From assembly GCA_038087875.1 (NCBI GenBank), contig CM075989.1, positions 3,100,001 to 3,164,000 of the forward strand: a stretch of DNA of 64,000 bases, written 5' to 3'. The notes below the pieces were generated by a model. It was not told the DNA's origin, searched no databases, and saw only the letters and a list, made by a program, of their open reading frames with translations. This document shows, in pieces, positions 2,397 to 52,299 of the stretch. The stretch comes from Malacoraja senta (taxonomy: Eukaryota). How positions within the stretch are numbered: position 1 is the stretch's first letter; every line of letters starts with the position of its first letter. The position numbers and the translations under genes were made by a program.

Positions 2397-2432
2397 TCCC
2401 TACTTTTGCACATAAAAGAAACTGCTGGAGAA

Positions 2433-6649: not shown

Positions 6650-7208
6650 GGCAGCACAGAGGCGCAGCGGTAGAGTTGCTGCCTCACAGCGCCAGAGACC
6701 CAGGTTCGATCCTGACTACAGGCGCTGTCTGTACGGAGTTTGCACGTTTTCCCCGTAACCACCGTGGGTTTTCTCAGGGCGCTCCGGTTTCCTCCCGCAT
6801 TCCAAAGACGCACAGGTTTGTAGGTTGTGTAGGAAGGAACTGCAGATGCTGGTTTACACCGAAGATAGACACAAAATGCTGGTGTAACTCAGCGGGACAG
6901 GCAACATCTCCGGAGAGAAGGAATGGGTGACGTTTCGGGTTGAGACCGTTCTTCTAAGAATGGTTACACCAGCATTCTTCTAAGACCCAAAACGTCACCC
7001 ATTCCTTCTCTCCAGAGACGCTGCCTGTCCCGTTGAGTTACTCCAGCATTTTGTGTCAATTTTTCAGATCTGTAGCTTCGGTAAAATTGTAAATTGTCCC
7101 TAGTGTGTGTGTGTAGGATAGTGTCAGTTGAGGGGATCGTTGGTCAGCGCAGACTCAGTGGGCAGAAGGGCCTGTTTCCATGCTGTATCTCTAAACTAAA
7201 CTAAACTG
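6650..7208 (+). mobile_element. HE1-like V-SINE interrupted by a palindromic Penelope pLTR element (~6826-7060)
   Basis: ggcgcagcgg A box, ggttcgatcc B box, V-domain, (taaac)n tail. Confidence 0.85.
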
Positions 7209-8793: not shown

Positions 8794-8993
8794 NNNNNNN
8801 NNNNNNNNNNNNNNNNNNNNNNNNNNNNNNNNNNNNNNNNNNNNNNNNNNNNNNNNNNNNNNNNNNNNNNNNNNNNNNNNNNNNNNNNNNNNNNNNNNNN
8901 NNNNNNNNNNNNNNNNNNNNNNNNNNNNNNNNNNNNNNNNNNNNNNNNNNNNNNNNNNNNNNNNNNNNNNNNNNNNNNNNNNNNNNNNNNNNN
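8794..8993. other. Assembly gap, 200 N
   Basis: Run of N; a round length suggests a placeholder of unknown true size. Confidence 0.99.
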
Positions 8994-9267: not shown

Positions 9268-9443
9268 TTTCCACGACTTCGCCTACCATTTCCCCATAAC
9301 CTTTCTTTCCCTTACCGATTAGAAATCTATCTCTCACTTAAATGCCAGATAGTGTGGTGACTCTTTACATGCAGGTCCCAGAAGATGATATACTCTCATA
9401 GAGATAGGGTCATCCAGCACAAGGCGGGCCCTTCCACCCAACC

Positions 9444-9687
9444 GTGTAGGAAGGAACTGCAGATGCTGGTTTAAATGGAACATAGACCCAAAATGCTGGA
9501 GTAACTCAGCGGGACAGGCAGCATCTCTGGAGAGAAGGAATGGGTGACGTTTCGGGGCAAGACCATTCTTCAGACTGTTCAGTCTTGACCCGAAAGATGG
9601 GTCTCGACCCGAAACGTCACCTATTCCCTTCTCTCCAAAGATGCTGCCTGTCCCGCTGAGTTACTCCAGCATTTTGTGCCTACCTTC
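9444..9687. mobile_element. Palindromic Penelope pLTR-derived short element with TSD
   Basis: Inverted arms around cagactgttcagtct; ccttccacccaacc duplicated at 9430-9443 and 9683-9696. Confidence 0.8.
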
Positions 9688-9844
9688 CACCCAACCTGTC
9701 CATGCCGATAAAGATGCCCCATCTATGCTATTCCCCAACTGCCCGCGTTTGGCCCATATCCCTCGAAACCTTCTAAACCTCTAAACCTTTAATCGCTCTT
9801 CACTTTTAAATCTCTTTCCACTTGCAAATCCATCGGTGTTTCTA

Positions 9845-10087
9845 TGTATAGGAAGGAACCGCAGATGCTGGTTTATACCAACGATCGACACAAGGTGCTG
9901 GAGTAATCCAGTGCGGCAGGCAGCATCTCTGGAACAAAAGGAATAGGTGGTGTTTTCAGATTGGAACCCTTCTTCAGATTGGCTTCTTCAGTCTGAAAAA
10001 GACTTCTGACCTGAAACGTCACCTATTCCGTTAATCCAGAGATGCTGCCTGACCCACTGGATTACTTCAGCACCTTTTGTTTATCAT
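9845..10087. mobile_element. Palindromic Penelope pLTR-derived short element (diverged)
   Basis: Inverted arms gtgctggagtaatccagtg...cactggattacttcagcac; ctgaaa...gaaacgtc motif. Confidence 0.7.
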
Positions 10088-10780
10088 CTGTATTTCTAGC
10101 TGTTCGACAATATTCTCTTTAATTTAGTATTTATTTCTTTGCTCTGCCTGATATGCTTGTGAGAACGTTGCTTGTATTCACGTGTCATCTGGTAACACAC
10201 AAGCTAAAGCTTTTCTCTGTAAACCCATGATAAACACATACCAATACCAAATATACTCTGTGCTTGTAACCCTATGTGTAGACGCTCCAAATACTCAACC
10301 TTCTGAGAGAAAGAATTCTTTCTCATCTCAGTCTTAAATGGATCTACCCTGATTCTGAGACACTTTGGTTTTGGCCGTGAGGAGAAATATCCTCTCAGCT
10401 TTTACACTGTCTAACAACAAAAAAATCTTATGCTTCACATAGGATCACCTCTCATTCTTCTAAACTTCAATGAGCGGATGGCAGCTTGCGTAAACTTTTC
10501 TCGTAAGACAATCCCTCTCCACACAAATTCTTCCTGCTGATCCTTTTTTTGAGCTGTGACCATTGTTCATTGTCCATTGTTCCGTTAGACTTCTCTATTA
10601 TTTGTTGCGAGTGTTAACTACAGTTTTCCACACTTTTTCTGCATTTCAATAGTTCAATGGTGCTTTTGTTGTCACAAGCGCAAAGTGCAAATGCACAGTG
10701 GAATTCTAGTCTTGCTTGCCCTCCAGTAGAGTAGTGCCATACCCAATTACATCCCCGATGAGCAAGTGTACAGAAGTAGT

Positions 10781-10808
10781 CTGAAGAAGGGTCTCGACCT
10801 GAAACGTC
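10781..10808 (+). ncRNA. Minimal type I hammerhead ribozyme motif within a Penelope pLTR (representative copy)
   Basis: CUGAAGA-A-GGGU(CUCG)ACCU-GAAA-C-GUC: conserved core, short stem II, palindromic ACGU stem III; activity untested. Confidence 0.65.
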
Positions 10809-11419
10809 ACCCATTCCTTCTCTCCAGAGATGCTGCCTGTCCCGCTGAGTTACTCCAGCTTTTTGTGTCTATCTTCAGTTTAAACCAGCATCTGCAGTTC
10901 CTTCCTACACAGAAATAGTCCACTGATCCCGTATGCAAGAGATGCCAACTCTGGCACCATTTTCATAATCCAGTCCAGTCTCTAGTTATGACTAAAATGA
11001 AACATCTTTAAAGACACAGAAAGAGGAAGGAAATAAATAAATGTCTGATGGGGTGGATTGAGACTTATTTAGCTTTAGGTTTAATTTTTAATGTGGGGGA
11101 TGGTAGTGGTAGTGCAAAGTGAGCAATAGAGGTCATGTTTTATTATTAATGTTTAATGTTTAATGTGTCATTCCTAGCTGTCACTGTATGTCATGTTGTC
11201 ACTTGCGGGCGGAGCACCAAGGCAAATTCCTTGTATGTGAATACTTGGCCAATAAACTTATTCATTCAATAGATTAGAGCACAGAAGGTCACTCTGCAGG
11301 ATGTGGAACTATTTGAGGTAGGTGGAATGAAAACTGGAAATCTAACTTTAAAAAGACTGGAATCCACATTGGATAAATATTCCAAGATGTTGGAGTGAAA
11401 CACTCAAGGCAATGTGCCG

Positions 11420-12670
11420 TAGTTTAGTTTAGTTTATTGTCATGTGTACCAACACGCAGTGAAAAAGGTCAAACCAGTCAGCGGAAAGAGTATACATGAT
11501 TACAATCGAGCCATCCACAGTGTACTGATACCTGGTAAAGGTAATAACATGAATAATGTCTAGTGCAAGGTGAAGTCTAGTCAATTCAGATCAAAAATAA
11601 TCTGTGTCTCCAATGAGGTAGTTAGGACTGTTCTCTAGTTATTGTGATGGGCCTGTCCCAATTAGGCATTTTTTAGGCAACTACAGGCGACTAGTTAGAC
11701 GCCACATGTTCGCCGGTGGTCGCCGGGAGTCGTCTCCTCAGTCGCGCAAAATGTTGTAGCGTCTTTCTGGTCGCCGCTAAATTTTCAACATTGAAACATT
11801 TTCGGCGACAGTGGGTTTGACGCCAGTGAGCGTAGCTTGACGTAGGTGCTGTCGTAGGTTGTTGCCAGAATGACAGAGGTTGTCGCTGGCAGTTGCCTCA
11901 AAAATCGGCAAGTGGGACAGGCCCATTAGGACGGTTCAGTTGGCTGATAACACCTGGGAAGAAACTGTCCCTGAATCTGGAGATGTGCATTTTCATACCA
12001 TTATACCCTTTCCCAAATGGGAGAGGGAAAAAGAGGGATTGGCTGGGGTGCAACTCATCCTTAATTATGCTGCTGGCCTTGCCGAGGCAGCGTGAGATGT
12101 AAATGGAGTCAATGGAAGGGAGGTTGGTTTGTGTGATGGTCTGGTCTGCGTCCACAATTCTCTGCAATTTCTGGCGGTCTTGGATGGAGCTGTTCCCAAA
12201 CCATGCTGTGATGCATCTCGATAAAATGCTTTTGACAGCGCAACTGTCGAAGTTCATGAGAGTTGTTGGGGACATGCTGAACTTCCTAAACCTTATAAGG
12301 AAGTAGAGGCCTTGATTGTTGCCTCAATATGGGTGGTCCAGGCCAAGTTGCTGGTGATATTTACTCCAAGGATATTAAAGCTTTCAACCATGTCTACTTT
12401 GGCACAGTCAATGCAAACTGAAGTCGATCACTATCTCCTTTGTCTCGCTGACATTGAGATAAAGGTTGTTGTCTCGACACCAGGACACGAAGTTCTCAAT
12501 CTCCTCCCTGTACTCCGTCTCATCATTATTTGACATCCGGGTGACAACGGTGGTATTATCTGCGAATATGTAAATTGAATTAGATTTGTACAAGGCTACG
12601 CAGTCATGGGTGAACAAGGAGTGAAGAAGGAGGCTGAGAATGGCTCCAGTGTTGAGGATTATTGTAGAGG
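11420..12670 (-). mobile_element. Rex1/Babar LINE RT to 3' end, degenerate, with a MITE at 11648-11925
   Basis: ORFs 12408-12755 (FTHDCVA...FADNTTVV...ETEYREEIE) and 11898-12275 (SILSRCITAWFGN...DSFFP). Confidence 0.85.
11648..11925. mobile_element. Harbinger-like MITE
   Basis: TIR tgggcctgtccca / tgggacaggccca; flanks tga/tta. Confidence 0.75.
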
Positions 12671-13214
12671 GTTTAACCGCAATGCTGTCCAAAATAATCC
12701 ACATTTTCCCCATACACCGACTTATTTCCCCTGCACTTAAGTTATCAAACAACATCTCTCTGTAAAAAAAGACAAAGTGCTTTCAACGAGTCAGCCAGAA
12801 TCTCTAGAGAACAAGGATAGGCGACGTTTTGGGCCAACACCCTTCTTTACAATCAAACCCGAATCATCACCTATCCATGTTCCCCAGAGATGCTGTCTGA
12901 CCCGCTGAATTATTCTAGCACTTTGTAAACCAGCATCTGCATCTCCTTGTGTTCACATCCCTCAGTGTTGATCTCTCTTCACCCTTATAAAGATGGGACC
13001 CGACCCAAGACGTCACTTATCCATGTTCTCCAAAGAAGCTGCCTGACCCGCTAAATAACCTCAGTACATTGTGTCTTGTTTTCAATCTCTTTAAGCTGTT
13101 TGTATCTTCCTCACGATTTGATATCCCACCTATGGATTGTGCCACTCTTGAATCCGGTCACCATTCGCTTCCTCCTTCCAGATTGTTACTACACATTGTA
13201 CCTTCGCTCAGCCC

Positions 13215-13630
13215 GCCTTCTCCTTCCCATACAGACCTTTCTGTCCTCGGTCTCCTCCATTGTCAGAATGAGGCTAAACACAAATTGGAGGAACAGCATC
13301 TCATATTTCACTTGGGCTGCTTACACCCCAGTGGTATGAATATTGATTTCTCTAACTTCAAGTAGCCCCGGCATTCCCTCTCTCGCTATCCCTCCCCCAC
13401 CCAAGTCGCAACAGCTTCTCGTTTTCATCCAACACACAGATGTTTCCTTTATCATCGTCACTTTTTTGCATATCTTTCATTCATTGTCCTTTATCTCTCT
13501 ATATCTCTTGTTTCCCTTTCCCCAGACAAGTCTAAAGAAGAGTCTTGACCTTAAACATCACCCGTTCCTTCTCTCCAGAGATGCTGCCTGTCCCGCTGAG
13601 GTTACTCCAGCTTTTTGTGTCTATCTTCTT
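13215..13630 (+). mobile_element. Penelope GIY-YIG C-terminus plus pLTR fragment
   Basis: ORF 13069-13365: SPSHTDLSVLGLLHCQNEAKHKLEEQHLIFHLGCLHPSGMNIDF. Confidence 0.8.
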
Positions 13631-13884
13631 GTAAACAACGTGGTCCTAGCACTGATTCCTGTGGTACTCAATAGGCTACAAGTTGCTAAACAGTAAATTT
13701 ACCTCTTAATCCTACTTGCTGCCCCCTTTGGCCCATTTGTCAATCCTCTATCCAGATCAAAATATTACATCCAGTACAACGTGGTCATGTGAATTAACCT
13801 TAGTGAGGCTTCTTGGTGAATACAACACTTCTGAACATCCACTATGATACATCTACTAGTTACCTCTGGTCAAGACTTTAGACT

Positions 13885-14182
13885 TTAGACCTTAGAGATA
13901 CAGCGCAGAAACAGGCCCTTCGGCCCACTGAATCCACGCCTACCAGCAATCATCCTGTACACTAACACTATCCTACACACTAGGAGCAATATACAATATT
14001 TTACCAAAGCCAATTCACCTGCAAACCTGTACATCTTTGGAGTGTGGGAGGAAACCGGACCACCTGGAGAAAACCCATGGAGAACGTACAAACTCCGTAC
14101 AGACAGCACCCGCAGTCAGGATGGAACCCGGGTCTCTGCCACTGTAAGGCAGCAACTCTACCGCTGCACCACCATGCTGCCA
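13885..14182 (-). mobile_element. HE1-like V-SINE
   Basis: Reverse complement of the consensus seen at 31938-32259. Confidence 0.85.
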
Positions 14183-14221
14183 GACAAACATTATAACCAG
14201 GGCTCTATTTACAATGGGAGC

Positions 14222-14980
14222 CTCCTGCCCACCATAGCCATATGTTTTGGACTTTCCCTAAGCTAGCAGCCTTTTGGAGGAGTGCTTTCGAATTGACAAG
14301 CAGAGCTTACGACCAGACTATTCCTCCAAACCCAATGTCAGCTATTTTCGGTACCCCTCCCAACACCAACCTCTCTGTTGCGGTGAAACGGGTCCTAGCT
14401 TTTACAACCTTGTTAGCCCGGAGACTGATCTTGCTTACCTGGAGGCTCACCTGTCCCCCGACACATGCCCGTTGGATTAAGGAGGTGCTTTACAATTTGA
14501 AACTTGAAAAACTTAGGTTCTCTCTCAAAGGCTCTACCAAGACATTCCTAGATACATGGAACCCTTTCTTTGAACTGGTTAACTCTCTTAACATGTCCCC
14601 GGACTCGGAAGAGGACTGAGTGTTCTCCACCATTGTTTTGTTCTACAGCAGCTGCTTTCCCCTTAATCCCCCCCTCCCCACAATATTTATTTAATTTTTT
14701 TTTTTTTTTTTTTTTTTTTAATTTTTAATTTTTAATTTTTTTAATTTATATATAGCACATTTTGTTTCGTTTATTTTACCATTTGTGTGTGGACGTGTAC
14801 GTATGTGAGTGTTGTTTGTCCCCGTTTGGTTCTGACCTGACTTGGGTGGGTTGAAGGTGGGTAAGGGTAAGGGTTTTGAGGGTCGCTTACATACTGTTGT
14901 ACAATTATGCCTTGACTGTCACTGTTTGTTATTATAGTATGTATGCAAATTGCTGCGAAATTCAAATAAAAAGATTTAAA
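14222..14980 (+). mobile_element. 5'-truncated L1-clade LINE (ORF2 C-terminus, 3' UTR, AATAAA) with a 16-bp TSD
   Basis: ORF 14242-14619: (H)MFWT.PKL..FW...LLARRLILLTW...LKLEKL...F..TW.PF; TSD tatttacaatgggagc at 14206-14221 and 14981-14996. Confidence 0.9.
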
Positions 14981-15305
14981 TATTTACAATGGGAGCTACT
15001 TTTATGAACCCCTTGTAAACTGCATTGTAATCCTGTTCACACAGACTTCAAGCACTGAGTTGTCTTTCATGTACCTTGGCATCAATAGCAACAAAGGTTT
15101 TTGAGTTTCATGTAAATAAGCTGCAATCAATTTGCACCACAGATTCACCACTCGAGCATGTGCTCCCACGCGGGCAAATACCTTCTCCGTTCCCCTGTCA
15201 TTTATTTTCAAACAGATGTTTGTATTTCTCAATCTGTTCGAAGCATCATAAAGGTCTGTCAGCTTCCTGAGTGTCACTGTGAAGCCGAGCTAAAAGCAGA
15301 TGAAA

Positions 15306-15985
15306 TGTGCAGGAAGGAACTGCAGGTATTGGTTTAAATACAATATAGACACAAAAATGCTGGAGTAACTCAGCGGGTCAGACAGCATCTCTGGAGAGAA
15401 GGGATGGGTGGCGTTTCGGGTCGAGACCCTTCTTCAGACTGAGAGTCAGGGGAAAGGGAATCAAGAGATTTAGACGGTGATGTAGAGAGATGTAGAACAA
15501 ATGAATGAAAGATATGCAAACAAGTAAGAATGATAAGGGAAACATTGTTAGCTGTGGGCCAGGTGAGAGCGTGTACACACAATAACACTCAACAAAACGA
15601 CTGAAGCTGATATGCAAAAAAGTAACGATGATAAAAGGTTCTCTAACTTCAAATAACCTTTGCAACCCTCTCTCTCCATCCCTCCCTCACCCAGGTCGTG
15701 TACCAGCTTCCAAGTTGTCTTGTTGAGTCTCATTGTCTGTAAATAGTTTTCACCTAGACCACAGCTAACAATGGCCTGTTTCCTTGATCATCGTTACTAT
15801 TTTGCATATCCATCATTCATTTGTTCTATACAGTATCTCTCTATTTCACCGTCTGCATCTCACGATTCTCTTTCCCCTGACTCTCAGTCTGAAGAAGGGT
15901 CTCGACCCGAAACACCACCTATTCCTTTCCTCCAGAGATGCTGCCTGACCTTGCTGAGTTACTCCAGCTTTTTGTGTCTATCTAA
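15306..15985. mobile_element. Penelope-like 3' end with inverted pLTR arms
   Basis: Minus arm ~15306-15635 and plus arm ~15640-15985 are reverse complements; hammerhead-like motifs at ~15410 (-) and ~15888 (+). Confidence 0.8.
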
Positions 15986-16339
15986 AGGCAGATAAAGCTG
16001 CTCCACATGATGTCTCATTCTATCGCCCTGATGCAGTCAAGATGAAAAAAAAATGTTATGTGTGGAAAAGAACTGCAGATGCTGGTTTATACCGAAGATC
16101 AACACAAAGTGCTGGAGTAACTCAGCTGCTCAGGCAGCATCTCTGGAGAAAAATGGATGGGTAAGATTTTGGGGTCTGAAGAAGGGTCCTGAGACGAAAC
16201 GTCACCCATCCATTTTCCCCAGAGATGCTGTATGGCGTGCAGAGTTGCTCCAGCACTTTGTGTCGATCATCCGTTATTTTACACAGATTTGGTGAACTGC
16301 CCAGACCTGCAGCCAGCCATACAAAGCAACAAAAGCGTG

Positions 16340-16630
16340 GCATGGTGGTGCAGCGGTAGAGTTGCTGCCTCAGAGACCCAGGGTTCGATCCTGACTACGG
16401 GTGCTGTCTGTACGGAGTTTTTACCTTCACCCTATGTCTGGTTTGCTCTGTGTGCTCCGGTTTCCTCCCACACTCCAAAGATGCACAGGTTTATAGGGTA
16501 ATTGGCTTTGGGGAAATTGTAAGTCGTCCCTAGTGTGTAGGATAGCGCTAGTGGACGGGGTGATCTCTGGTCGGTGAAATTTCGGTGGGCTGAAGGGCCT
16601 GTTTCTGCACTGTATCTTTAAAGTCCACAG
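16340..16630 (+). mobile_element. HE1-like V-SINE
   Basis: A/B boxes, V-domain and CR1-type tail. Confidence 0.8.
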
Positions 16631-16715
16631 TCTGGTAAAGTGAAATAAAGTGAATTTAAACAGCGCCCTTCATGTGTTGGGGATGCCAAAAGACTTTGAT
16701 TTGGACAAAACACCA

Positions 16716-17345
16716 ATAGACAACAGACAATAGGTGCAGGAGGAGGCCATTCGGCCCTTTGAGCCAGCACCACCATTCACGTGATCACGGCTGATCATCC
16801 ACAATCAGTACCCCGTTCCTGCCTTCTCCCCACATCCCCTGACTCCGCTTTCTTTAAGAGCTCTATCCAACTTGTAAAACGTGAAGCGTATTAACCGCAG
16901 CACTGACCCTTGTGGAATTCCGCTCGTCACTGGCAGCCAACCAGTAAGAGCCCCCTTTATTGCCACTTTGACTTTTGCCATCCAGCCAACCTGTTCTTCA
17001 TGTCAGTATCTGCCCTATGATACCATGGGCTCTCATTCCCTAGCCGCCTCACGGGTGGCACCTTATCAAAGGCTTTCTGAAAATCTAGGTAAACAACATC
17101 AAGAGATTCTCCTTTGACTGTCCTACTATTTACTTCTTCAAATAATTCCAGCAGATTAATCAGGCAAGATCTCCCCTTCACAAAACCCTGCTGACTTTGG
17201 CCTATTTAATCATGAACGTCTAAGTACTCCACAACCTCATCCTTTATAATGGACTCCAAAATCTTGCCAACCACTAAAGTCAGATTAACCGGCCTCTTGT
17301 GCCCACTATTCTGGTTTGCTCCCTTCTTGTACAGCGGGGTAATGT
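16716..17345 (-). mobile_element. CR1 fragments (3' tail 16716-16870; RT N-terminal part 16875-17345)
   Basis: ORFs with GRSCLINLLELFEEV...DVVYLDFQKAFDKVP and ANITPLYKKG...RPVNLT. Confidence 0.85.
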
Positions 17346-17740
17346 TGGCATGGGCTGGTTCTGCAACTTGGATGCCCAGGAAACTACGGAGGGTGGTGAG
17401 CATTGTCCAATCCATCACAGGTGCTGACCAGCGACAGGATCTATCGGAGGTGCTGCCTCAATATCATCAATGACCAATACCACTCTGACCACAAAGTGTT
17501 TTCGCTGCCGCCATCAGGAAGAAGATACAGGTGCCTGAAAACTGTGACCACCAGATTCAAGAACAGCTTCTTCCCAGCAACCTGTTAAACACAGCACGAC
17601 ACTATCCTCAGCAACTATGATCTTCTGTGGACTGTGACTTTGGTTGCACGATGGGCTTCAGTGCCTGCACCACTATGGTTAGCTGGTATCACTATTATTA
17701 ATTGTATTTTATTTATGATTTCATGTTTACCCATGCGTTA
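17346..17740 (+). mobile_element. Rex1/Babar 3' fragment
   Basis: HKVFSLPPSGRRYRCLKTVTTRFKNSFFP. Confidence 0.75.
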
Positions 17741-17744
17741 TTAT

Positions 17745-18032
17745 TTCAGTTTAGCTTGGTTTAGAGATACAGAGCAGAAACAGGCCCTTCAGCCCACCGA
17801 GTCCACACCGACCAGCGATCCCCGCATATCCCACACACACCAATTAACCTATAAACCTGTATGTCTTTGGAGTGTGGGAGGAAACCAAAGTTCTCAGAGA
17901 AACCCCACACAGATCACGGGGAGAACGTACAAACTCCGCTCAGACAAGCACCCATAGTCGGGACCAAACCCGGGTCTCTGGCGCTGTAAGCGGTGTAAGG
18001 CAGCAACTCTACAGCTGCGCCACCGTGCCGCC
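17745..18032 (-). mobile_element. HE1-like V-SINE
   Basis: Reverse-complement head ctgcgccaccgtgccgccc and tail. Confidence 0.85.
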
Positions 18033-18559
18033 CTTGTGTTTACGTTATTTTGGCTTGACATTGTTATTGTTATTTGAGGCAACAGTGCTTTAATGTAACA
18101 TGTACCTAAGTACAGTGAAATGACTTTTTTGCATTCAGTTCAATGACAATCTTACTTTACATCAGACACAATCATACCAAGTATAAGAGTGTAAGATAGT
18201 GGACCACACTGAGTCTGTACACGCAAATCACCACGTTTCAGGCTCCATCTTCTACCCTTCGAGTTCGATTTTTTCCTTAAAGATAATGTTAGAGTCTTAA
18301 CTTGACCATAAAGGCCCATTGTCCTGGCGGCAGCACTGGGTCGGAGTTGAAGGGTCGGCCTGGCCTGGCGATGTGTCGATGTCCTCCACCGCTGCTCCGC
18401 TACTCTGTGCCGCTGCAGGCCACATCCGATCCCTGAGCTGGGCCACTCAGAGTGGCACCCGATCTAATGGAGCCCCAGGCTGCTGCAGGGCCTCCAGCGG
18501 CCCACTTCACTGAAGACCAGCAGTTAATGACTCTCATGTCAATTCCAAACGTCTTCAAA

Positions 18560-18950
18560 TATGTCTCATATTTCACTTGGGCAGCGGTATGAATATTGAC
18601 TTCTCTAACTTCAATTACCCCTTGCTTTCCCTCTCTCTCCATCCCTCCCCGTCCTAGTTTTGCGATCAGTCTGATTGTCCTCCTGATTAAAATTTGCATT
18701 GTCACCTTCCCCAACTAACAATCTATTCAACATTTTCCATGGTCTTCATCCCCTTCAATCTTTCGTTATCACACCTTATCCTTCCGTATCTCTTGTTTCC
18801 CTCTCCCCTGACTCTCAGTCTGAAGAAGGGTTTCTACCCGAAACGTCACCCATTCCTTCTCTCCAGAGATGCTGTCTGTCCCACTGAGTTACTCCAGCAT
18901 TTTGTTTCTATCTTCGGTGTAAACCGGCATCAGCAGTTCCTTCCTACACG
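18560..18950 (+). mobile_element. Penelope 3' end/pLTR with hammerhead motif
   Basis: ctgaagaagggtttctacccgaaacgtc at 18820; GIY-YIG terminal remnant atgaatattgacttctctaacttc. Confidence 0.8.
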
Positions 18951-19139
18951 TCTTCTCATTTCTGCCTTTATTTCCCAACACTGGAACTTTCTGATCTATT
19001 AATTTATTATATTATAGATTGGTTACCTGCATTTTCTGTGTGTAATTGCACTTATAGGCCTGTTAAACTGCTGCAAGTAAGAATTTAATTGTTCTATTGC
19101 TGGTATGGTCATGATATGACATGGGGTGGTATGACCATC

Positions 19140-19550
19140 AATGTTCAGGAAGGCTGGCTCCTTCCTGGTGGTCTTGGAGGGGAGGATGCTCCTCAAACTG
19201 CGGAGCATCTTGGACAATACAGCTCACCCCCTCCATCACACACTGGTCAACCTGAGGAGCACCTTCAGCAACAGACTGGTTCCACCAAGATGCAGCACAG
19301 AACGCCACAGGAGATCCTTCTTCCCAGTGGCTATCAAACTGTACAACTCCTCCCCCTTCTGTCGTGGGGTAGACTGAGACTGACTCCCCCATGCCCCCCC
19401 CCACCACCACTCAGTCCATTGCACATCCCCAATCCTTTCCACCTGTCTCTTTAATTTAGTGTTTCATGTACCTTGTGTGTTTATGACTGTTGGCAGATCA
19501 ATTTCCCTCCTGGGATAAATAAAGTTCAATCGGATCGGATCGGATCGTAT
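19140..19550 (+). mobile_element. Rex1/Babar LINE 3' end with (gatcg)n tail
   Basis: ORF 19141-19377: ILDNTAHPLH...RLVPPRCSTERHRRSFFPVAIKLYNSS; aataaagttcaatcggatcggatcg. Confidence 0.8.
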
Positions 19551-19569
19551 ATGCGGCAATCAAACACTC

Positions 19570-19858
19570 TTTAGTTTAGTTTAGTTCAGTTTAATTTGGT
19601 GATACGGCGTGGAAACAGGCCCTTCGGCCCACCGAGTCCATGCTGACCAGCAATCCCCGCACATTAACACTATCCTACACACACAGGGACAATTTACAAT
19701 TTTACCAAACCAATTGGCCTACAAACCTGAATGTCTTTGTCATGTGGGATGAAACCGAAGCTCCCAGAGAAAACCCACGCAGGTCACGAGGAGAACCTAC
19801 AAACTCCGTACAGAGAGCACCCGTAGTCAGGATCGGACTGGTGCTGTAATGCCACCGT
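19570..19858 (-). mobile_element. HE1-like V-SINE
   Basis: Matches the consensus in reverse. Confidence 0.85.
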
Positions 19859-20847
19859 TATCTCTTATCTCCCATCTTTATTGTTTATATCTCAGCAACA
19901 GATCACCATGGACCACCATTTCCACTAACATAGACTAGTTTTTCTAATTGAGTTCGCACCAACTAACTGTGTATGCACCTATATACACACACACACACAC
20001 AAGATAGACACAGAATACAGGAGCAACTCAGCAGGACAGACAGTATCTCTGAAGAGAGGAATGGTTGACATTTCTAGTCAAGACGTCTGAAGAAGGGTCT
20101 TGACCCGAAACATTCCTTCTCTCCAGAGATACTGCCTATCCTGCTGAGTTACTCCAGCTTTTTGTGTCTATCTTTGGGTCCAAATGCATCTCCCAAGGCT
20201 GTTATCAGTCTGATGCAATCTGGTGACTTTAATGGCTCCAGCCTGCATTGCCATTGTGTAATCACAGTTTACAACTCCTGGCAAGCGGCTTGTTAAGGCT
20301 CTACTGCCTTGGAGGGACCATCAGTCATTACCCTCATTACCCTGGTATCCCAGGGACGATGTTGGTCTTGTTAGTCCCACTGCGGCATCCTTAAATCAAA
20401 GGAGTGTTGAAAGTGTTCAGATGCAGTTGGCTCCTGACTGTCTGATTGCTGTGTATCAAAGGCACAGGCTTTAACCTTGAACTTGCTTGTCGAATAAAGC
20501 ATCAACCCCTTACGCGAAAGATAGTGAGAATCCTCCAGAGCATGAAAACAACACCCAATGTCTTTGAAGGATGTCCCTTTCATGGACGACAATGGGGAGA
20601 TTCAACACAGGACTAACAGATTGGTTTATGTCACTGTTAAACTCACAAACAGGAAAACCTGAAAGAAATGCTTACTATATTTCTGGCGCAATGACATTTT
20701 CAAGCCTCTGGCTCTTGGTTCTGCTACAGAGTTTGCGTACGTCTCCGTCATGCTGTGACTTATTGTTGAAGATGTGATTTTTCATGTGTGACCTCTGATG
20801 TGTTGTGGAGCAAAGAATTACTCACTGAGACTGATCTTGGGTAGAAC

Positions 20848-21870
20848 AGTCATAGAGTGATACAGCAGGGAAACAGGCCCTTCAGCCCAACTTGCCCACA
20901 CCGACCAACATGTCCCAGCTACACTAGTCCCACCTGCCTGTGTTTGGTCCATATCCCTCCAAACCTGTCCTATCCATGTACCTGTCTAACTGCCCTTCTA
21001 CGTTGGGATAGTCCCAGCCTCAACTACCTCCTCTGGCAGCTCATCCCGTACACCCACCACCCTTTGTGTGAAAAAGTTATCCCTCAGATTCCCATTAAAT
21101 CCTTTTTCCTTCACCTTAAATCTGGTCCTCGATTCCCCATCGCTGGGCAAGAGTCTCTGTGTATCTACCCGATCTATTCCTCTCATGATTTTATACACCT
21201 CTATAAGATCACCCCTCATCCTCCTGCGCTCCAAGGAATAGAGACCCAGCCTACTCAACCTCTCCCGGTACCTCAGACTCTCGAGTCCTGGCAACATCCT
21301 TGTACATCTTCTCTGTACCCTTTCCAGCTTGACAACATCTTTCCTCTAACATGGTGCCCTGATGAAGGTCAATGTGCCAAAAGCCTTTTTGAGCAGCCTA
21401 GCTACTTGCGACTTCACGTTCAAGGAACCATGCACCAGTACTCCTAGATCCCTCTGCTCTACAACACTCCCCAGAGGCCTACCATTCACTGTGTAGGTCC
21501 TGCCCTTGTTAGACTTCCCAAAATGCAACACCTCACACTTCTCTGTATTAAATTCCATCAACCATTCCTCAGCCCACCTGGCCAATCGATCAAGATCCTG
21601 CTGCGTTTTTTCACGACCATCTTCACTATCGGCAAAACCACCCACTTTCGTATCATCTGCAAACTTGCTAATCTTGCCGTGCACGTTATCATAATAATAA
21701 TTGATGTAGATGGCAAACAGTAACGGGCCCAGCACCAAACCCTGAGGCACACCACCAGCCACAGGCCTCCAGTCCGAGAAGCAACCTTCCTCCATCACCC
21801 TCTCCTTCCTTCCTTGAAGCCAATATTCTATCCATTCAGTTATCTCTCCTTGGATGACATGCGATCTAAA
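20848..21870 (-). mobile_element. CR1 (HER1-like) LINE, RT to 3' end
   Basis: ORFs 21346-21798 (GVPQGLVLGPLLF...SKFADDTK) and 20998-21297. Confidence 0.92.
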
Positions 21871-22329
21871 GATTTATTGGAGCAGTATTGCACCTGCAAG
21901 TGTTAGAGGGCCCATTCACCACGTGGGTTGTCTACCCAATTAACAGTCTGGTCGAGGCTATAGTCTTGTGATCAAGTACAATGATGTACAGGTACAGTAA
22001 AAAATCTTGTATGTAGCAACATCATAGACTCATTGACTCAGACAACATACAAAACATCAATTATACCTAACTTAGACATTATACAAGCCTGTGAAAAGAG
22101 AAGGAGTGTGCAAAAATATATATTGGTGGCCCCCACCTCTCTTTCACCGTGCTCCCCCCATTATGACCAGTCTGAAGGTTAAGATGCACGGCACTAACAG
22201 TGACAATGGATTCCAGGTTGGCTTACTGTTAGAAGACAGAGGGTTTTGGTGGAAGAACAATATTCAGACTGAAAGTCTGTGAGCAATAGATGAGGTGGGA
22301 GGAAGTGCTAAGTGAAATCAGGTCGGTTT

Positions 22330-22762
22330 AGGCGACCTCATCTACTGCAACTTCCAACCTCATCAACTGTATCCGCTGTTCCAAGTGTGGACTCCTGTTA
22401 TATCAATGAGACCAAGCGCAGACTCACCGATCATTTCGTTGAACAACTCCGCACAGTCTGCCTAAACCTACCTGATCTCCTGGTTGCTAAACACTTCAAC
22501 TCCCCCTCCCATTCCCACACTGACCTTTCTGTCCTGGGCCTCCTCCACTGTCAGAGTGAGGCCCAGTGTAAATTGGAGGAACAGCACCAGCTTACAACGC
22601 AGCTGTATGAATATGGACTTCGCTAACTTCAAGTGACCCTTGCCTTCCCTCTCTCTCCATCCCTCTCCATTCCTAGTTCTCCGACCAGTCTGACTCTTCC
22701 CCTCATTACATTTTATCTCTGTTTACTTTGTTGTCACCTTCTCCCAGCTAACAATGATCTAT
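22330..22762 (+). mobile_element. Penelope GIY-YIG endonuclease remnant
   Basis: ORF 22312-22626: YINETKRRLTDHFVEQLR...VAKHFNSPSHS...KLEEQH. Confidence 0.85.
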
Positions 22763-22764
22763 TA

Positions 22765-23135
22765 ACACAGAAAATAGGTGCAGGAGGAGGCCATTTGGCC
22801 CTTCAAGCCAGCACCACCATTCATTGTGATCATGGCTGATCATCCACAATCAGTAACCCGTGCCTGCCTTTTCCCCATATCCCTTGATTCCGCTAGCCCC
22901 TAGAGCTCTATCTAACTCTCTTTTAAATTCATCCAGTGAATTGCCCTCTACTGCCTTCTGCGGCAGGGAATTCCACAAATTCACAACTCTCTGGGTGAAA
23001 AAGATTTTTCTCATCTCAGTTTTAAATGACCTCCCCTTTATTCTTAGACTGAGGCCCCTGGTTCTGGACTCCCCCAACATTGGGACCATGTTTCCTGCAT
23101 CTAGTTTGTCCAGTCCTTTTATAAATTTATATGTT
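22765..23135 (-). mobile_element. CR1 3' end inserted in the Penelope remnant (Penelope resumes ~23140-23332)
   Basis: ORF 22850-23089: FFTQRVVNLWNSLPQ. Confidence 0.88.
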
Positions 23136-23395
23136 TATTATATTCTACATTTTCCTTGAGCCCCATCTGTTTTGGTCTCGTTTTCACACCTTACACATCC
23201 TTATCTCTGTTCCTCATTCTCCCCTGACTCAAAGTTTGAAGAAGGGTCTCGACCCGAAACATCATCCATTCCTTCTATCCAGAGATGCTGCCTGTCCCGC
23301 TGAGTTACTCCAGCATTTTGTGTCTATCTTCAGATGAGGTATCATGGATACGCAGATGGTTGGACAATAGCCAGAGATGAAAAGACAAAAGGAGA

Positions 23396-24362
23396 TAATA
23401 ATGAATAATAATTCATTTTATTTACTGCCGCCTTTCTAAAACCCAAGGACACCTTACAAGGCATAGAATCACAAAAATACAAAACGCATAATCGGAGTAA
23501 ATTAAATATAAAAACACCACAGTACACAAATCAAGGACAGAATTCAATTATAAAAGCACAAAAAGAAAATAAGAAACACAATTTGAGGAGAGAGCAGTGG
23601 CAGCTAAACCGCGCCAGCGTCCACTCTCCCCTCCGACCGCCATCTTGCACACAGACTAACAGGCACAGCACACAAAATCATCCCCCCACAATGACCACCA
23701 CTGTGGGGGAAGGCACAATGTCCAGTCCCCAACCCAGTTCTCCCCAGAGTCAGGCCCATCGAGGCCACCACAGTTGCCTCTACGGAGGCCCGATGTTCCC
23801 GGCCGTCGGGAGAGTCCTCGCAGCGGCTGGAACGGCCGGTTTCCCAGCGGAGTCGATGGCACCTGAAGCCGACAGGGCCGCGCCGATTTGGAGCCACGAG
23901 GCTCCCGATGTTAAAGTCGGCGCCGCCGCCCGCGGCTGGTCGCTCCGCAGACCCGCAGCCCGGAGGTGTTGGTGTCGGCGGTCACCGCATACCGGAGCTC
24001 CACCGCGTCGACCCAGCGTGGCGACCCAGGCAAGGCATCGCCCGCTCCGCTCCACAATAGCGCCCCAGCGCTGTGCCGCCGACCGAAGCTGAAGGTGCTG
24101 GGCGGCCCCCGTCAGGAAACGGCGCTCCATGCCCGCTGGTAGGCCACGAGGACGGGTCGACGAGGCAGCCTGGAGAAAAAGCTGCCTCACCGACCAGGTA
24201 GGGACCCAGAAATAGTTTCCCCCTTACCCCCCCCCCCACATTAAAAGTCAAAATCCCCCAAACAAACAGAGAAATAAAAATAGCTAAAACTAAAGAACAA
24301 GTGAATTTGACGGACGGCTGCTGTTTATTCTGTTTAGCAGCCGTTCCTCCAAGATGGCGGCT
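23396..24362 (-). mobile_element. GC-rich non-coding, non-autonomous retroelement-like sequence with an L2-type 3' tail
   Basis: Minus-strand tail tgtaaggtgtccttgggttttagaaaggcggcagtaaataaaatgaattattatt resembles L2 tails; CpG-rich body; no recognisable ORF. Confidence 0.5.
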
Positions 24363-24394
24363 CCTCCGAGGTTCAAATATGAAGCCAAAGCAAG

Positions 24395-24720
24395 GGTTGA
24401 GATTTAGCTTTATTATTGTCATGAGTACTACGGGAAGGTGAAAAGCATAATATCCATTCAAACCAGGTAATATTATACATAAATACAATCACATCAAACT
24501 CAACAACAATAAGTAGAGCAAAGGGGAAGATACAGAATATAGTTCTCAGCATCGTAGTGCTACAGTTCCAGAGACAAAGTTCAATGTCCATGGGATGGAG
24601 GTGAATCGGCCGGCACTCTAGCTTATGGAAGGACCGTTCAGAGGTCTGATAACAGAGGGGAAGAATCCGTGCTTTCAAGCTTCTGTATCTTCTGCCTGAT
24701 GGCAGCGGGGAGGAGAATGA
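24395..24720 (-). mobile_element. Rex1/Babar-type 3' tail fragment
   Basis: Reverse-complement tail ttattgtcat; remnant of the SFFP..IR.LN coding end. Confidence 0.6.
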
Positions 24721-25534
24721 ATGAGCCGATATAGGTGGAAGGGGATGGGGGAGGGGGTGGGGGCTAAAAGGTGGTGAGATGGTCGCTGAACTAGGTGCAT
24801 ATCCAGATGAGGCACAGGTGCAGTCACAGCAAGAGTGGACAAAAGCCTTTCACTGTACCTCGGTCCACGTGACAATAAGCTAAACTAGCAAAACGATATT
24901 CAGCCCCTCATGCCAGCTTCAACGTTCACTAACTTCATAGCAGCTGTTCTATCTCACCACCTCTTTCCTGCTCTAACCCCATATTCCTTGATCCTCTTGA
25001 ATTCTTCATTAGTTCATAAGTTCTTGGAGCAAAATTAGGCCATTTGGGCCACGGTCTACTCCGCCATTCAATCATGGCTGAGCTATCTCTTCCTCATAAC
25101 CCCATTCTCTTGCCTTCTCCCCATAACCCCTGACACCCGTACTAATCAAGAAACAGTCCATCTCTGCCTTAAAAATATCCCTTGACTTGGCCTCCACAGC
25201 CGGCTGTGGCAATGAATCTAAAATATTTGTCTTCTGTCCCGGCTGTACCCAATGAGTGAACTTGCATTTCTCTCATAGGTGGCAACTTTCAAAGATTAAT
25301 CAGCTTCTGGAGCAAGATGTCCTGGAGCAAGATTCATTCTTATGTCCTGAATCTGTGACAGTAAGAGTTTCATTGTTCCATTGTCCGTACAAATGACAAT
25401 TAACAATTCTTGACCCTTGACTCCTGGTTCCAGGGTAAACACCAATCCTGCGCTTTCCTCATTAACTCCCATAAGAATCTTGCACCATTCACCCCATCTC
25501 TACAGTCTTCATACCCAGTCTGCCTAATCTCTCA

Positions 25535-26160
25535 CCACGGTGGCCTAGCAGTAGAGTTGCTGCCTTAAGGGCCTGTCCCACTTTCCTGAGCTGCTCACGA
25601 ATTCTCCCGAGTTTTCTCCTTGATTCAAACTCGGAGAATGTTCGAGCCGTAGGTACTCAGGGCATCAGGTAAGTTGGGACGTTTTTTCCAGCTTGACAAA
25701 AGATGTCCACGAGTAAAAAGATAGTCGGGAGGAGAACAATTGCAACATTTAATGACCCGAGTACCTATGGCTGACATAACGAGCCGCTACGTTATATCTA
25801 CGGACTCCTACGGCCTCCTACGGACCCGTTACGAACATTCTCCGAGTTTGGGAAAGTGGGACAGGCCCTTTACAGCGCCGGAGACCCGGGTTCGATCCTG
25901 ACCACGGGTGCTGTCTGTACAGAGTTTGTACGTTCTCCCCGTGACCGCATGGGTTTTCTCTGAGATCTTCGATTTTCTTCCACGCTCCGAAGACATACAC
26001 GTTTGTAGGTTAATTGACTTGGTATAAACGTAAAATTGTCCCTAGTGTGTGTAGGGTAGCGTTAATGTATGGGGATCACTGGTCGGTATGGACTTGGTGG
26101 GCTGAAGGGCCTGTGTCCGTGCTGTATCTCTAAACTAAACTAAACAATAAACTAAACCAA
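25535..26160 (+). mobile_element. HE1-like V-SINE with a Harbinger-like MITE inserted at 25568-25869
   Basis: SINE head tgcc-tta|MITE|tta-cagcgcc; TIR agggcctgtcccacttt / aaagtgggacaggccct; TTA TSD. Confidence 0.88.
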
Positions 26161-26793
26161 ATCAATTCAACCATTGCAGTTATATTCTTCCTTTGAAGAC
26201 CGACACAGAATATACACTGCTTCTCCAAGGCCCAATATAATTAGACCAAGATATTCTTGACCTAATTATTCTTGGATATAAATTCCCTTGCAATAAAGAC
26301 CAACATATTGTCTTTAAAAAGACGTGCAGATGCTGGTTTACAAAAAAAGGACTCAAATTGCTGGAGTAACTCAGCAGGTCAGCCAGCATCTCTGGAGAAC
26401 ATGGATAGATGACGTTTCAGAATGGGACCCTTCTTTGGTCTCAACTCAAAATGTCACCTATCCACGTTCTCCAGAGATGCTGCCTGAGTTACTCCAGCAC
26501 TTTGTGTCCTTTTTTTGTAAACCAGCATCTGCTCCATGTTTGAAAGCATTTAGCAGTGTCGTTACAATAGCTGGAAATGGAGGAATAGTCACGGTCTTGT
26601 CAGCAACATCCATATCCCATGGACACACAATGAACTGCAGATGGTTGAATCTTGTACAAAACACCAAGTGCTGGAGGAACTCAAAGGGTCAGACAGCATC
26701 TGCGGAGGGAGGAGAGAAACAACGTTTTGGTTCAGGACCCTTCTAAGGGTCCCGACCCAAAATGGCACCTGCTTTTCTCTCCAAAGATGCTGA

Positions 26794-27040
26794 GTTTAGT
26801 TTAGAGATACAGCATGAAAACAGGCCCTTCAGCCCATTGAGCCCACACCGACCATTGATTAACCTAAAAAATTCACACGTCTTTGGAATGTGGGAGGAAA
26901 CCGGAGCACCCGGAGGAAACCCATGTGGTCAGAGGGAGAACGTGCAAACTCCACACGGACAGCACCCGAGGTCAGGATTGAACCCAGGACTCTGCCATTG
27001 TGAGGCGGCAGCACTACCAGCAGCGGCACTCTGCCGCCCC
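26794..27040 (-). mobile_element. HE1-like V-SINE
   Basis: Matches the consensus in reverse. Confidence 0.8.
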
Positions 27041-27280
27041 TGCCTACTGTGCCAGATACTGCCAGACCCATTGAGTTCCTCCAGCACTTTGTGTTTGGAG
27101 ACATATCCTTTGACTAAAGCAAAAATCTGGACACTATGATGAGACTTGGGTGTGTTGGGGGAGAAATTCTTAATGGTCAACTTCTAGAACCACAGTGTCG
27201 TAAGTCCTGCTTGTGTAGCCATTCACTGAAGCAGTGGATGAATGTATGCAGAAAGCTAGTGTTTTATTGTTCATAACAAA

Positions 27281-27640
27281 GACAGACACAAAAAGCTGGA
27301 GTAACTCAGCGGGACAGGAATGGGTGACGTTTCGGGTCAAGACCCTTCTTCAGACTGAGAGTCAGGGGAAAGGAAATCGAGAGATATAGATGGTGATATG
27401 GAGAGATATAGAACAAATGAAAGAAAGATATGCAAAAAAGTATCGATGATAAAGGAAACAGGCCATTGTTGGCTGTGAGCTAGGTGAAAATGAGTTACAG
27501 ACAATGAGACTCAACAAGACAACTTTGAGGCTGGTACGACTTGGGTGGGGGACGGATGGAGAGAGAGGGGATGCAAGGCCTACTTGAAGTAAGAGAAATC
27601 AATTTTCATACCACTGGATGTAAGCTGCCCAAGCGAAATA
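27281..27640 (-). mobile_element. Penelope pLTR/3' end with intact hammerhead motif
   Basis: gacgtttcgggtcaagacccttcttcag at 27326. Confidence 0.8.
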
Positions 27641-27987
27641 TACATAGATACATAGATACATAGAAAATAGGTGCAGGAGTAGGCCATTCGGCCCTTCGAG
27701 CCTGCACCGCCATTCAATATGATCATGGCTGATCATCCAACTCAGTATCCCGTACCTGCCTTCTCTCCATACCCCCTGATCCGTTTAGCCACAAGGGCCA
27801 CATCTAACTCCCTCTTAAATATAGCCAATGAACTGGCCTCAACTACCCTCTGTGGCAGAAAGTTCCAGAGATTCACCACTCTCTGTGTGAAAAAGTTTTT
27901 CCTCATTTCGGTCTTAAAGGATTTCCCCCTTATCCTTAAGCTGTGACCCCTTGTCCTGGACTTCCCCAACATCGGGAACAATCTTCC
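27641..27987 (-). mobile_element. CR1 3' end
   Basis: ORF 27742-28002; (catagata)n tail. Confidence 0.88.
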
Positions 27988-28182
27988 GTGGTGTTCCTCC
28001 AATTCTGTTCATGTTCGTTCCACTTCCACCAAACTACATCTATGATTTTTTTCTTCCCACCAACCACCCCCTACCACACCATACATCCTCTATCCTCTTC
28101 AGGCCTAGATCCAATTAATGACCAGAAATGTATTTTACCAGGATTGTACACACAGACATTGAACAAGGACCTCCAGGGAAGC

Positions 28183-28424
28183 GTGTAGGAAAGAACTGCA
28201 GATGCTGGTTTAAATCAAAGGTTGACACAAAATGCTGGAGTAACTCAGCGGGACAGGCAGCATCTTAGGAGAGAAGGAATGGGTGACGTTTCGGGTCAAG
28301 ACCCTTCTTCAGACTGTTCAGTCTCGACCTGAAAGAAGGGTCTCAACCCGAAACGCCACCCATTCCTTCTCTCCAGAGATGCTGCCTGTTCCGCTGACTT
28401 ACTCCGGCATTTTATGTCTACCTC
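28183..28424. mobile_element. Palindromic Penelope pLTR-derived short element with TSD
   Basis: Same central junction as 9444-9687; acctccaggga duplicated at 28169-28179 and 28420-28430. Confidence 0.8.
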
Positions 28425-29277
28425 CAGGGAGGTTTATGTCTCTGGGATGGGAGAGAGCAGAACTGGATGGGGAAATAAGAGTTGATGTAAAAATGTTCCT
28501 TTACATAAATTTTTTTTCTCTCAACCACCTCGTTCTTTCTCAGTTGGAGCTTTCTTTTTGATGAAATGAGATTGAGATAAAAAGTTGATAGAACGGAAAC
28601 GTCAATGAGCATATATGATCTGATGTTGTAGATATTTGGGGCCGTGGATGGCACTATATCCAGAGGATCAAGGTGGCCCAACTCATTCACACTGATGGTG
28701 AAAGTGTTTGATGAAATTGGATTTAGAAACATAGAAACATAGAAAATAGGTGCAGGAGGAGGCCATTCGGCCCTTCGAGCCAGCACCGGCATTCATTGTG
28801 ATCATGGTCGATCGTCCCCAATCAATAACCCGTGCCTGCCTTCTCCCCATATCCCTTGATATATATCTTTTCAAATATAGTTTAGTTTAGTTTATTTTGC
28901 AGATACAGCGCAGAAACAGGCCCTTCAGCCCATGAGGCCGTGCTGACCAACAATACCCCGCACATTAACACTACCTTACGCATAGTATGGACAATTTTTT
29001 ACATTTCTAACCAAGCCAATTAACCGTCGAATAATCTAGGTTATTGTCAAAGATCAGCATGATTTTACTTCGGAGTCACGTGAGTGACTACGTGAAGAAG
29101 ACCCGTCAGGGCGCATGCGCGTCATTACGTCTGACGCATTGGCGCACGGACAGCGGGAGGACAGAGCTCCTCCTGTGGTGAGTACTTTAAAAACTCCAGC
29201 AAAGTTGGGAAAACGTTGGTGGAGTTAGGAGTATTGTGTTTTGTTGGTGCTGTGTATTTTCTCGATTTACAGGCACT

Positions 29278-52145: not shown

Positions 52146-52299
52146 CATTCAGTCTGGGTGTGATAACAGAGTGGTTAAATGCCAATAACAGGGACGTGGG
52201 ACATACCCAGAAGATCAGATTGAACCAATGCACGGACACAAAGCAGAGCCAATAGACATATTGAGATGTACAGTTAAAAGACCATTTCAAGCCACACTG

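Follow-up and report, generated by a model that had tools for sequence, protein, structure and literature searches.

Insertions of EN+ Penelope-like elements (PLEs) are described in Arkhipova et al. 2013 (PMC3846280) and Craig et al. 2021 (PMC8557442) as carrying a head-to-head, 5'-truncated inverted copy, a tail of 30-40 nt at one end, a TSD of about 8-10 bp and palindromes at the inverted junction. The former source also gives pLTRs whose 5' ends bear palindromes of 18 and 38 bp and a pLTR sequence that was by itself mobilised in trans in Adineta, and both state that the mechanism behind PLE inverted structures is unresolved. For Poseidon_Ac of Anolis, Frangieh et al. 2024 (PMC11167929) report two internal reverse transcription (RT) start sites that bound the tail, and nicking and extension of both target DNA strands. 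Metazoan PLEs carry minimal hammerheads with palindromic positions 15.2-16.2, and dual min-HHRs about 100-700 bp apart on opposite strands are known (Cervera and De la Pena 2014, PMC4209133). Non-LTR retrozymes (bioRxiv 10.64898/2026.07.22.740005) and MRC1 (PMC8557442) are pLTR-derived, non-coding and thought to be moved by PLE proteins.

In a 64-kb window of the skate Malacoraja senta, the whole stretch of DNA that was analysed, two elements at 9444-9687 (copy 1) and 28183-28424 (copy 2) each consist of skate PLE pLTR arms paired head to head, as a sequence-only reading had claimed (Table 1). They resemble EN+ insertions in their inverted arm, tail and variable TSD (11-14 bp), and this overall shape is PLE anatomy already published; they differ in that the insert comprises only two pLTR arms and that one complex junction stands at two loci, a kind of sharing that the excerpts of PMC3846280 and PMC8557442 do not describe. 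Two RT start sites like those of Poseidon_Ac account for the two end types of the skate family (positions 1 and about 36-43), although Poseidon_Ac belongs to a different clade and the relatives of the skate family carry a CX2-5CxxC linker. The layout of the hammerhead core is that of PMC4209133, but in these copies the core survives on a single strand and would be buried in the modelled hairpin. Whereas non-LTR retrozymes and MRC1 are arranged head to tail, the retrozymes as tandem units each with a type I hammerhead, the skate arms are head to head, with one core and a low copy number; a retrozyme reading was rejected because of this arrangement and because the core lies on one arm only. Our literature search turned up no non-autonomous PLE family that is palindromic and has a fixed junction; Dfam/Repbase or the supplements of the retrozyme preprint, which concern retrozyme families of one chondrichthyan, could hold the repeat.

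Anatomy and parentage of the two foldbacks

Table 1. Features of the two foldbacks, of sister foldbacks and of the parent PLE ORF in the window
Positions	Strand	Feature
2432..3088		Longer foldback of the same family; long arm enters 3' end of GIY-YIG ORF; 12-bp TSD
6827..7063		Sister foldback; different templated 29-nt centre
9430..9443	+	Copy 1 tail-end TSD, 14 bp
9444..9577	-	Copy 1 long pLTR arm and tail (sense is minus strand); hammerhead core with damaged stem II
9578..9593		Copy 1 junction, 16 nt of re-copied arm pieces
9594..9682	+	Copy 1 inverted arm (short), lacking both tail and hammerhead core
9683..9696	+	Copy 1 second TSD; first 5 nt agree with pLTR continuation
9846..10091		Older sister foldback; different 7-nt centre
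28169..28179	+	Copy 2 tail-end TSD, 11 bp, followed by 3-nt filler (28180-28182)
28183..28316	-	Copy 2 long pLTR arm and tail; minimal hammerhead core and stem II intact
28317..28332		Copy 2 junction, 16 nt, as in copy 1 bar 2 differences, both at CpG-type sites
28333..28419	+	Copy 2 inverted arm (short), lacking both tail and hammerhead core
28420..28430	+	Copy 2 second TSD; first 4 nt agree with pLTR continuation
33691..33898		Sister foldback lying the other way round; another centre, of 5 nt
52530..52700	-	Part of the parent PLE ORF (C-terminal GIY-YIG), with pLTR 52299-52430 downstream; served for family identification

Copies 1 and 2 align with 89.8% identity across 246 nt (1 indel and 23 substitutions within 237 nt), and because the differences are evenly spread over the segments (7/78, 2/35, 7/62 in the centre, and 7/62), no younger homogenised tract is present, the centre included. 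In both copies the first family position covered is 1 in the long arm and 35-41 in the short arm, so that the tail measures 35-40 nt, which confirms the extra stretch noticed earlier on one arm. The foldback RNA is computed to form a 90-bp hairpin of -166.7 kcal/mol.

The arms at 2954-3088 and 52299-52430 continue into a C-terminal GIY-YIG ORF piece, and the earlier attribution to Penelope pLTRs is thereby borne out. The best matches of this piece are skate proteins (up to 77% identity); one relative, P0076 (816 aa), matches RVT_1 and GIY-YIG, both under the Pfam cut-off. The CX2-5CxxC linker between RT and EN, which together with RT phylogeny defines the Neptune/Nematis clade (PMC8557442), is visible in relatives P0002 and P0076. 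The best explanation of both elements is that they are dead foldback insertions of an endonuclease-bearing skate PLE with a probable Neptune/Nematis-type linker.

The window has 13 matches to a minimal hammerhead motif, and both copies carry one on the minus strand; there, copy 2 retains an intact stem II, while in copy 1 two of the five stem II pairs are broken. On the plus strand the motif search found the core in neither copy, and Rfam at gathering scores returned no matches. The description of the elements as double hammerheads with motifs in both polarities had allowed for a disrupted plus strand, and in this it was right; as the core is confined to one strand, the term overstates the case. 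A protein search with junction-crossing frames matched its single candidate, P0001, a foldback with a different centre, and a second such search matched none of one; the collection holds almost none of the repeat.

The TSDs of 14 bp (copy 1) and 11 bp (copy 2) agree with the differing direct repeats first reported; among 19,841 random flank pairs, exact matches of at least 11 nt occurred in 8 and of at least 14 nt in 1. Both overlap the pLTR continuation at the tail-less end by 4-5 nt, and this microhomology blurs the tail-less boundary. Between the copy 2 filler and the copy 1 flank 3 of 4 bases agree, a likeness too weak for assigning a direction. MITEs and other cut-and-paste DNA elements have terminal inverted repeats that reach both ends and a TSD of fixed length; such a reading was rejected because the 35-40 nt tail is at one end only and the TSDs differ in length. 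The flanks of the two copies are unrelated. The 3' end of a LINE, from a family with over a dozen matches in the window, lies about 180-240 nt upstream of each, and these two pieces are 79.6% identical, differently truncated and resemble each other no more than they resemble other members, which, with the unrelated flanks, rules out the local segmental duplication that the sequence-only reading had named as its alternative. An assembly artefact is unlikely, given the 10% divergence between the copies and the contigs of X1, the best-matching run, which cover copy 2 on either flank with single-copy depth.

The shared centre and its copy number

With up to 3 mismatches allowed, a 37-nt centre pattern matches only 9568-9604 and 28307-28343 in the 64-kb window and nowhere in 100 shuffled sequences, so the odd centre ascribed to both elements is indeed common to them. 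The window holds 17 head-to-head pairs of the family, and the centre is absent from the other 15; in 78 pairwise comparisons of 13 short centres, the shared one scores 0.82 and the next best 0.24. It requires three identical breakpoints in both copies, the junction consisting of pieces bounded by 2-4 nt microhomologies. Both long arms carry the same non-consensus bases at 2 sites, and they differ at one subfamily-type site, 28221. One of the 2 shared sites, a CpG 18 nt away from the junction, has the other base in about 83% of contig depth. The 10% divergence between the copies is the sum of the 5-7% that separates each from the consensus. Given a centre unique among the 78 comparisons and the exclusion of a flank-including duplication, common descent of the junction is the most likely reading.

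The related palindromes with other centres that had been pointed out are present (Table 1), and the centre of the 9846 foldback has the same first motif as the shared one. In most of the other 14 pairs a flank match above 9 nt is absent. All four runs show peaks of loose ends at 28183 and 28224, and since 13 of the 17 pairs show the same tail and no-tail end types, a unit cannot be argued from the outer ends that the two copies have in common. Foldbacks being this routine, a palindrome of such a type is unremarkable without a genome-wide junction count. Thirteen of 62 arm matches halt at family positions 130-134 and are followed by non-body sequence.

Copy number was bounded from contig depth and simulation, not counted in an assembly. 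In X1 contigs, depth was 3,006 across the centre, 30 over single-copy flank and 2x10^7 over the arm, the centre thus reaching about 1.4x10^-4 of arm depth; spanning depth was 2,012 in X3 and 9,758-10,008 in X4. The runs of the two other species are equally low. The density of the junction in the window extrapolates to about 69,000 copies, and a simulation of 60,000 copies, with the seed rule at its strictest, gave a depth of 6x10^5 or more, at least 200-fold above that observed. A distinct, amplifying non-autonomous unit, as proposed earlier, is therefore unsupported at any abundance. A depth of 3,006 fits roughly 30-500 copies even if all spanning contigs are counted as family, and by this modelling the shared junction would be bounded at a few hundred copies genome-wide at most. 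Four junction-spanning pieces listed carry 10-14 gaps each, and the spanning depth may come wholly from other centres aligned with gaps; several variants listed at 28327-28332 we read as those expected of ordinary arms extended leftwards. More than 2,000 different joints are listed among the contigs, a simpler one (28316 to 28358) recurring in several. A T-to-C change at 28330 (6, 13, 24 and 0 contigs) was discarded as a junction count, as ungapped ordinary arms yield the same change. Metagenome and viral contigs gave no junction match, a blank that is uninformative for the metagenome contigs because an ordinary-arm control was empty there too.

How one junction could come to occupy two loci

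We favor, with a probability of about 0.5, the explanation that a foldback insertion already in the genome served as template for one or a few further rounds of reverse transcription, perhaps locally. Two cDNAs, one from each RT start site, would be joined head to head by templated end-joining, which would usually give every insertion a centre of its own; one foldback would then be transcribed and reused as a template by PLE protein acting in trans, the least certain step. One cDNA would begin at the tail, cross the junction and continue along the inverted arm, and the other would start at the tail-less site; as the two are complementary and can anneal, the junction would be inherited while the ends and the TSD are made anew. 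Such re-use may have left between two and, at most, a few hundred copies, perhaps close to the locus of origin, and no abundant family. Re-copying is supported by a centre unique to 2/17 pairs, its three identical breakpoints, the separate TSDs and unrelated flanks, as well as by the shared non-consensus bases of the long arms and a divergence that is even and sums that of each copy; the trans mobilisation of a pLTR sequence reported in Adineta is in keeping with it, and the spanning depth leaves room for a small family. Against it, the difference at 28221 fits independent insertions slightly better, and RT must displace the 90-bp hairpin. No third junction copy was identified, whether in the 64-kb window or elsewhere, and contigs cannot split true junctions from gapped other centres. 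In a dispersed family of 10-100 copies, the probability of a second copy within 19 kb is 0.0002-0.002, so a local bias must be assumed; we know of no report of local hopping of PLEs.

Proximity, rarity and distinct TSDs are also accounted for, without a new element, by ectopic gene conversion, which the earlier reading had not considered and which we regard as possible but rather unlikely. Here two independent foldbacks of one young subfamily, 18.7 kb apart and alike in orientation, would have come to share the junction when a break at one centre was mended shortly after insertion with the other as template, the junction being copied and both TSDs kept. This fits the facts cited for common descent and the unlike long arms at 28221, and Alu quasi-palindromes do undergo breakage in yeast (PMC3855049). 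Conversion between neighbouring Alus works best at 89-100% identity and falls with distance over about 10 kb, clear cases being rare (98; PMC8230782); 18.7 kb exceeds this range, and the foldbacks at 6827 and 9846 are nearer. As the centre, with 7/62 differences, resembles the outer parts and no tract of higher identity exists, any conversion must be about as old as the insertions.

Arms that so often end just before the hammerhead core (13/62 stop at positions 130-134) could instead mark a hotspot, at which snap-back and slippage over a few microhomologies made the same joint twice. The 2-4 nt microhomologies flanking the junction pieces, the first motif at 9846 and the recurrent simpler joint are in keeping with this. 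The remaining centres nevertheless all differ (top score 0.24), over 2,000 different joints are listed and this joint is very rare genome-wide, which makes two independent formations within 64 kb improbable. Hardly credible is an abundant palindromic retroelement amplifying as a unit, for which two copies with distinct TSDs in 64 kb would speak: its density would imply some 69,000 copies, far above what the depth in X1 and in the two other species can accommodate, even though the Logan k-mer abundance ceiling of 50,000 and SPAdes-like graph simplification could hide paths (PMC12424806), depth came from 88% of X1 and some differences went uncounted.

Foldbacks as possible templates

Re-copying may extend beyond this pair, although we hold the generalisation to be doubtful: PLE foldback products would be templates, and skate genomes would hold many small junction-marked lineages of hairpin retroelements, each with tens to hundreds of members, and some of these lineages would spread locally by way of nascent RNA. 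If so, palindromic RNA would let twin-priming cDNAs anneal over the whole arm and thereby pass on the junction, junctions would serve as lineage barcodes of source loci, and the PLE foldback mechanism would become testable from genomes alone. Should conversion be the cause, the pair would be a small example of a palindrome repaired from its neighbor. Either way, foldbacks are routine in this skate family, and if junctions are inherited, they would be active templates whose centres trace their source loci.

Two palindromic insertions with a common centre

The sequence-only reading described two palindromic elements, each built of two head-to-head pseudo-LTR (pLTR) arms of a Penelope-like retroelement (PLE), with a common centre and their own TSDs, and pairwise alignment, pattern scanning and flank comparison confirmed them as described. 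Copies 1 and 2 are 89.8% identical over 246 nt, their 23 substitutions being evenly spread. Scanning the window for the 37-nt centre gave two matches, against none in 100 shuffled sequences, and the looser 16-nt pattern added just two more, both ordinary arms. The flanks of the two copies are unrelated to each other; among 19,841 random flank pairs, TSD-like matches arose once for the 14-bp type and eight times for the 11-bp type. Shortly upstream of each copy lies a LINE 3' end (the two pieces are 79.6% identical and belong to a common family). The long arms, which carry a 35-40 nt tail, have two non-consensus sites in common (a subfamily polymorphism and a CpG change near the centre) and differ at a further site of subfamily type (28221).

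Features of the window, by position
Positions	Feature	Details
1071-1240	Scrambled foldback	Several re-copied arm pieces at centre
2432-3135	Foldback	12-bp TSD; sits in older same-family pLTR, at that pLTR's tail-less end
2954-3088; 52299-52430	Arms	Run on into 3' end of an ORF
8794-8993	Assembly gap	200 bases (N run); 450 nt upstream of copy 1
9444-9687	Copy 1	TSD 14 bp
11647-11926; 45340-45586; 54372-54616	Three short MITE-like elements	Related terminal inverted repeats of 34-45 nt
28183-28424	Copy 2	TSD 11 bp + 3-nt filler
30397-31212 (+)	Tyrosine-recombinase ORF	Pfam Phage_integrase, E 9.5e-11
31425-31742	Region of 84-nt inverted repeat	98%; adjoins recombinase ORF
30397-31212; 31425-31742	Recombinase ORF and inverted repeat	Resembles a DIRS-type element
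59237-61400 (-)	5' part of PLE ORF	Single occurrence in window; 42% identity to P0076 residues 80-272; long proline-rich repeats; no adjoining pLTR match

The expectation that the element RNA forms one long hairpin was borne out by the predicted fold (-166.7 kcal/mol, z = -20), which leaves the tail single-stranded, outside the hairpin. A motif scan found the minimal hammerhead pattern at 13 places in the window. Hammerhead-derived motifs had been proposed in both polarities, with the plus-strand core noted as disrupted in these two copies; both copies carry the pattern on the minus strand, where copy 2 has an intact stem II and copy 1 a damaged one, and neither carries it on the plus strand. 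Since the predicted hairpin would bury the motif, ribozyme activity in these two copies appears unlikely.

Foldbacks in the PLE family

As a repeat the arm is very common: the 64 kb window has 62 matches, and 253,456 to 327,129 contigs align in three genomic runs, which represent three organisms. The ORF-end peptide adjoining it has its best relatives, by protein search, among skate proteins, and a full-length relative, P0076 (816 aa), shows RT and GIY-YIG matches, both below Pfam's cut-off, and a CX2-5CxxC linker. By the definitions in PMC8557442, the family is an endonuclease-bearing PLE, probably of the Neptune/Nematis type, judging by the linker motif of its relatives.

Head-to-head pairs number 17 in the window, with the tail on one arm in 13, on both in 2 and on neither in 2. 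Loose contig ends peak at the tail end (28183) and 41 nt inside (28224) in all four runs, and older pairs show 2-11 non-consensus sites common to both arms, as expected if both stem from one template type. The same anatomy is described in PMC3846280 and PMC8557442, where PLE insertions have a truncated copy in inverted orientation, palindromes at the junction, a TSD, and a tail of 30-40 nt on one end; PMC4209133 notes opposite-strand hammerhead pairs 100-700 bp apart. For an anole PLE in vitro, PMC11167929 reports cutting and extension of both strands and two internal RT start sites, which match the two end types seen in the skate family. Because the one-tail foldback is routine here and a published PLE structure, the identical outer ends are no sign of a unit element, and copies 1 and 2 represent an insertion type already known for PLEs, here in a skate family.

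The top joints in run contigs connect opposite strands, tail end to tail-less end (68-71 contigs per genomic run), which, together with the foldback nested within a pLTR, suggests self-targeting. The scrambled foldback shows this family to form templated junctions with multiple jumps.

Structure and abundance of the shared junction

The junction can be parsed as a hairpin apex, nearly perfect, after which the sequence jumps forward and then back, with 2-4 nt microhomology at each jump. Among 13 short centres (78 pairwise comparisons; four long-centre pairs, excluded from scoring, differ by inspection), the copy 1/copy 2 pair scored 0.82 and the next best 0.24. Common descent of the junction, dating to about insertion time, fits best. 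Of the 62 arm matches, 13 break off at their inner ends at family positions 130-134, immediately ahead of the hammerhead core, and continue into non-body sequence; this break could be an RNA 5' end, with an initiator-like motif, or an RT stop. At a simpler foldback joint, 28316 to 28358, the second arm begins at the predicted hammerhead cleavage site. This joint, found in 7 contigs of run X4 (depth 1,256, or 1,000 where a single A intervenes), in 6 of X3 and in 2 of X1, may mark a cleaved RNA as template or another small lineage.

Contigs of four runs were aligned to 28160-28459 at 80% likeness. Depth in the best-matching run, X1, possibly the source of the window (depth there resting on 88% of the run, with some differences uncounted), was 28.5-31.6 in the flank, 2.15x10^7 in the arm (28300-28309) and ~3,006 across 28327-28330; across the junction it was ~2,012 in X3 and ~9,800 in X4. 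As depth is not copy number, it was calibrated by unitig simulation (30x, k-mer abundance ceiling 50,000, three ancestor states, four seed lengths). Window density implies ~69,000 copies; for 60,000, simulated depth was 6x10^5 to 1.8x10^7. The observed 3,006 corresponds to roughly 30-500 copies if all spanning contigs belong to the family. This is an upper bound, since the four spanning pieces listed, with their 10-14 gaps, are other centres. Logan graph simplification, as outlined in PMC12424806, lies outside the simulation and could remove moderate-abundance paths. An abundant junction-bearing family is unlikely; 2 to a few hundred copies are compatible with the depth, sizes within that range being inseparable. 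The earlier interpretation is partly supported: common descent of the junction fits best, and the low junction depth argues against an abundant palindrome amplifying as a unit. A literature search, its scope excluding Dfam, Repbase and most subscription papers, found no fixed-junction palindromic PLE family. The sharing of the junction is a genuine anomaly, though a small one.

How the junction came to be shared

For 10-100 dispersed copies, the computed probability of a neighbour within 19 kb is 0.0002-0.002, which points to a local process or to a chance draw from many small lineages. We favour, at a probability of about 0.5, the renewed retrotransposition of an existing foldback. We infer that RT could start in the single-stranded tail, and that the first cDNA would cross the junction and be complementary to a second, primed at the tail-less site; so paired, the cDNAs would keep the junction, and the insertion would gain new ends and a new TSD. 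The 4-5 nt microhomology at the tail-less ends of both copies agrees with each insertion having been primed anew.

Gene conversion from one neighbouring insertion to the other would account for the same anatomy and also for the proximity of the copies, but the event would have to be as old as the insertions, and the distance is greater than the range of approximately 10 kb that PMC8230782 gives for Alus; we regard it as possible, though clearly less probable than re-use of a foldback. That the same joint was made twice, as a junction hotspot would favour, is improbable given the more than 2,000 different joints among those listed, and causes outside those considered are very improbable. At its broadest, in a picture we hold to be rather doubtful, PLE foldbacks would themselves act as templates, and skate genomes would harbour many small junction-marked hairpin lineages.
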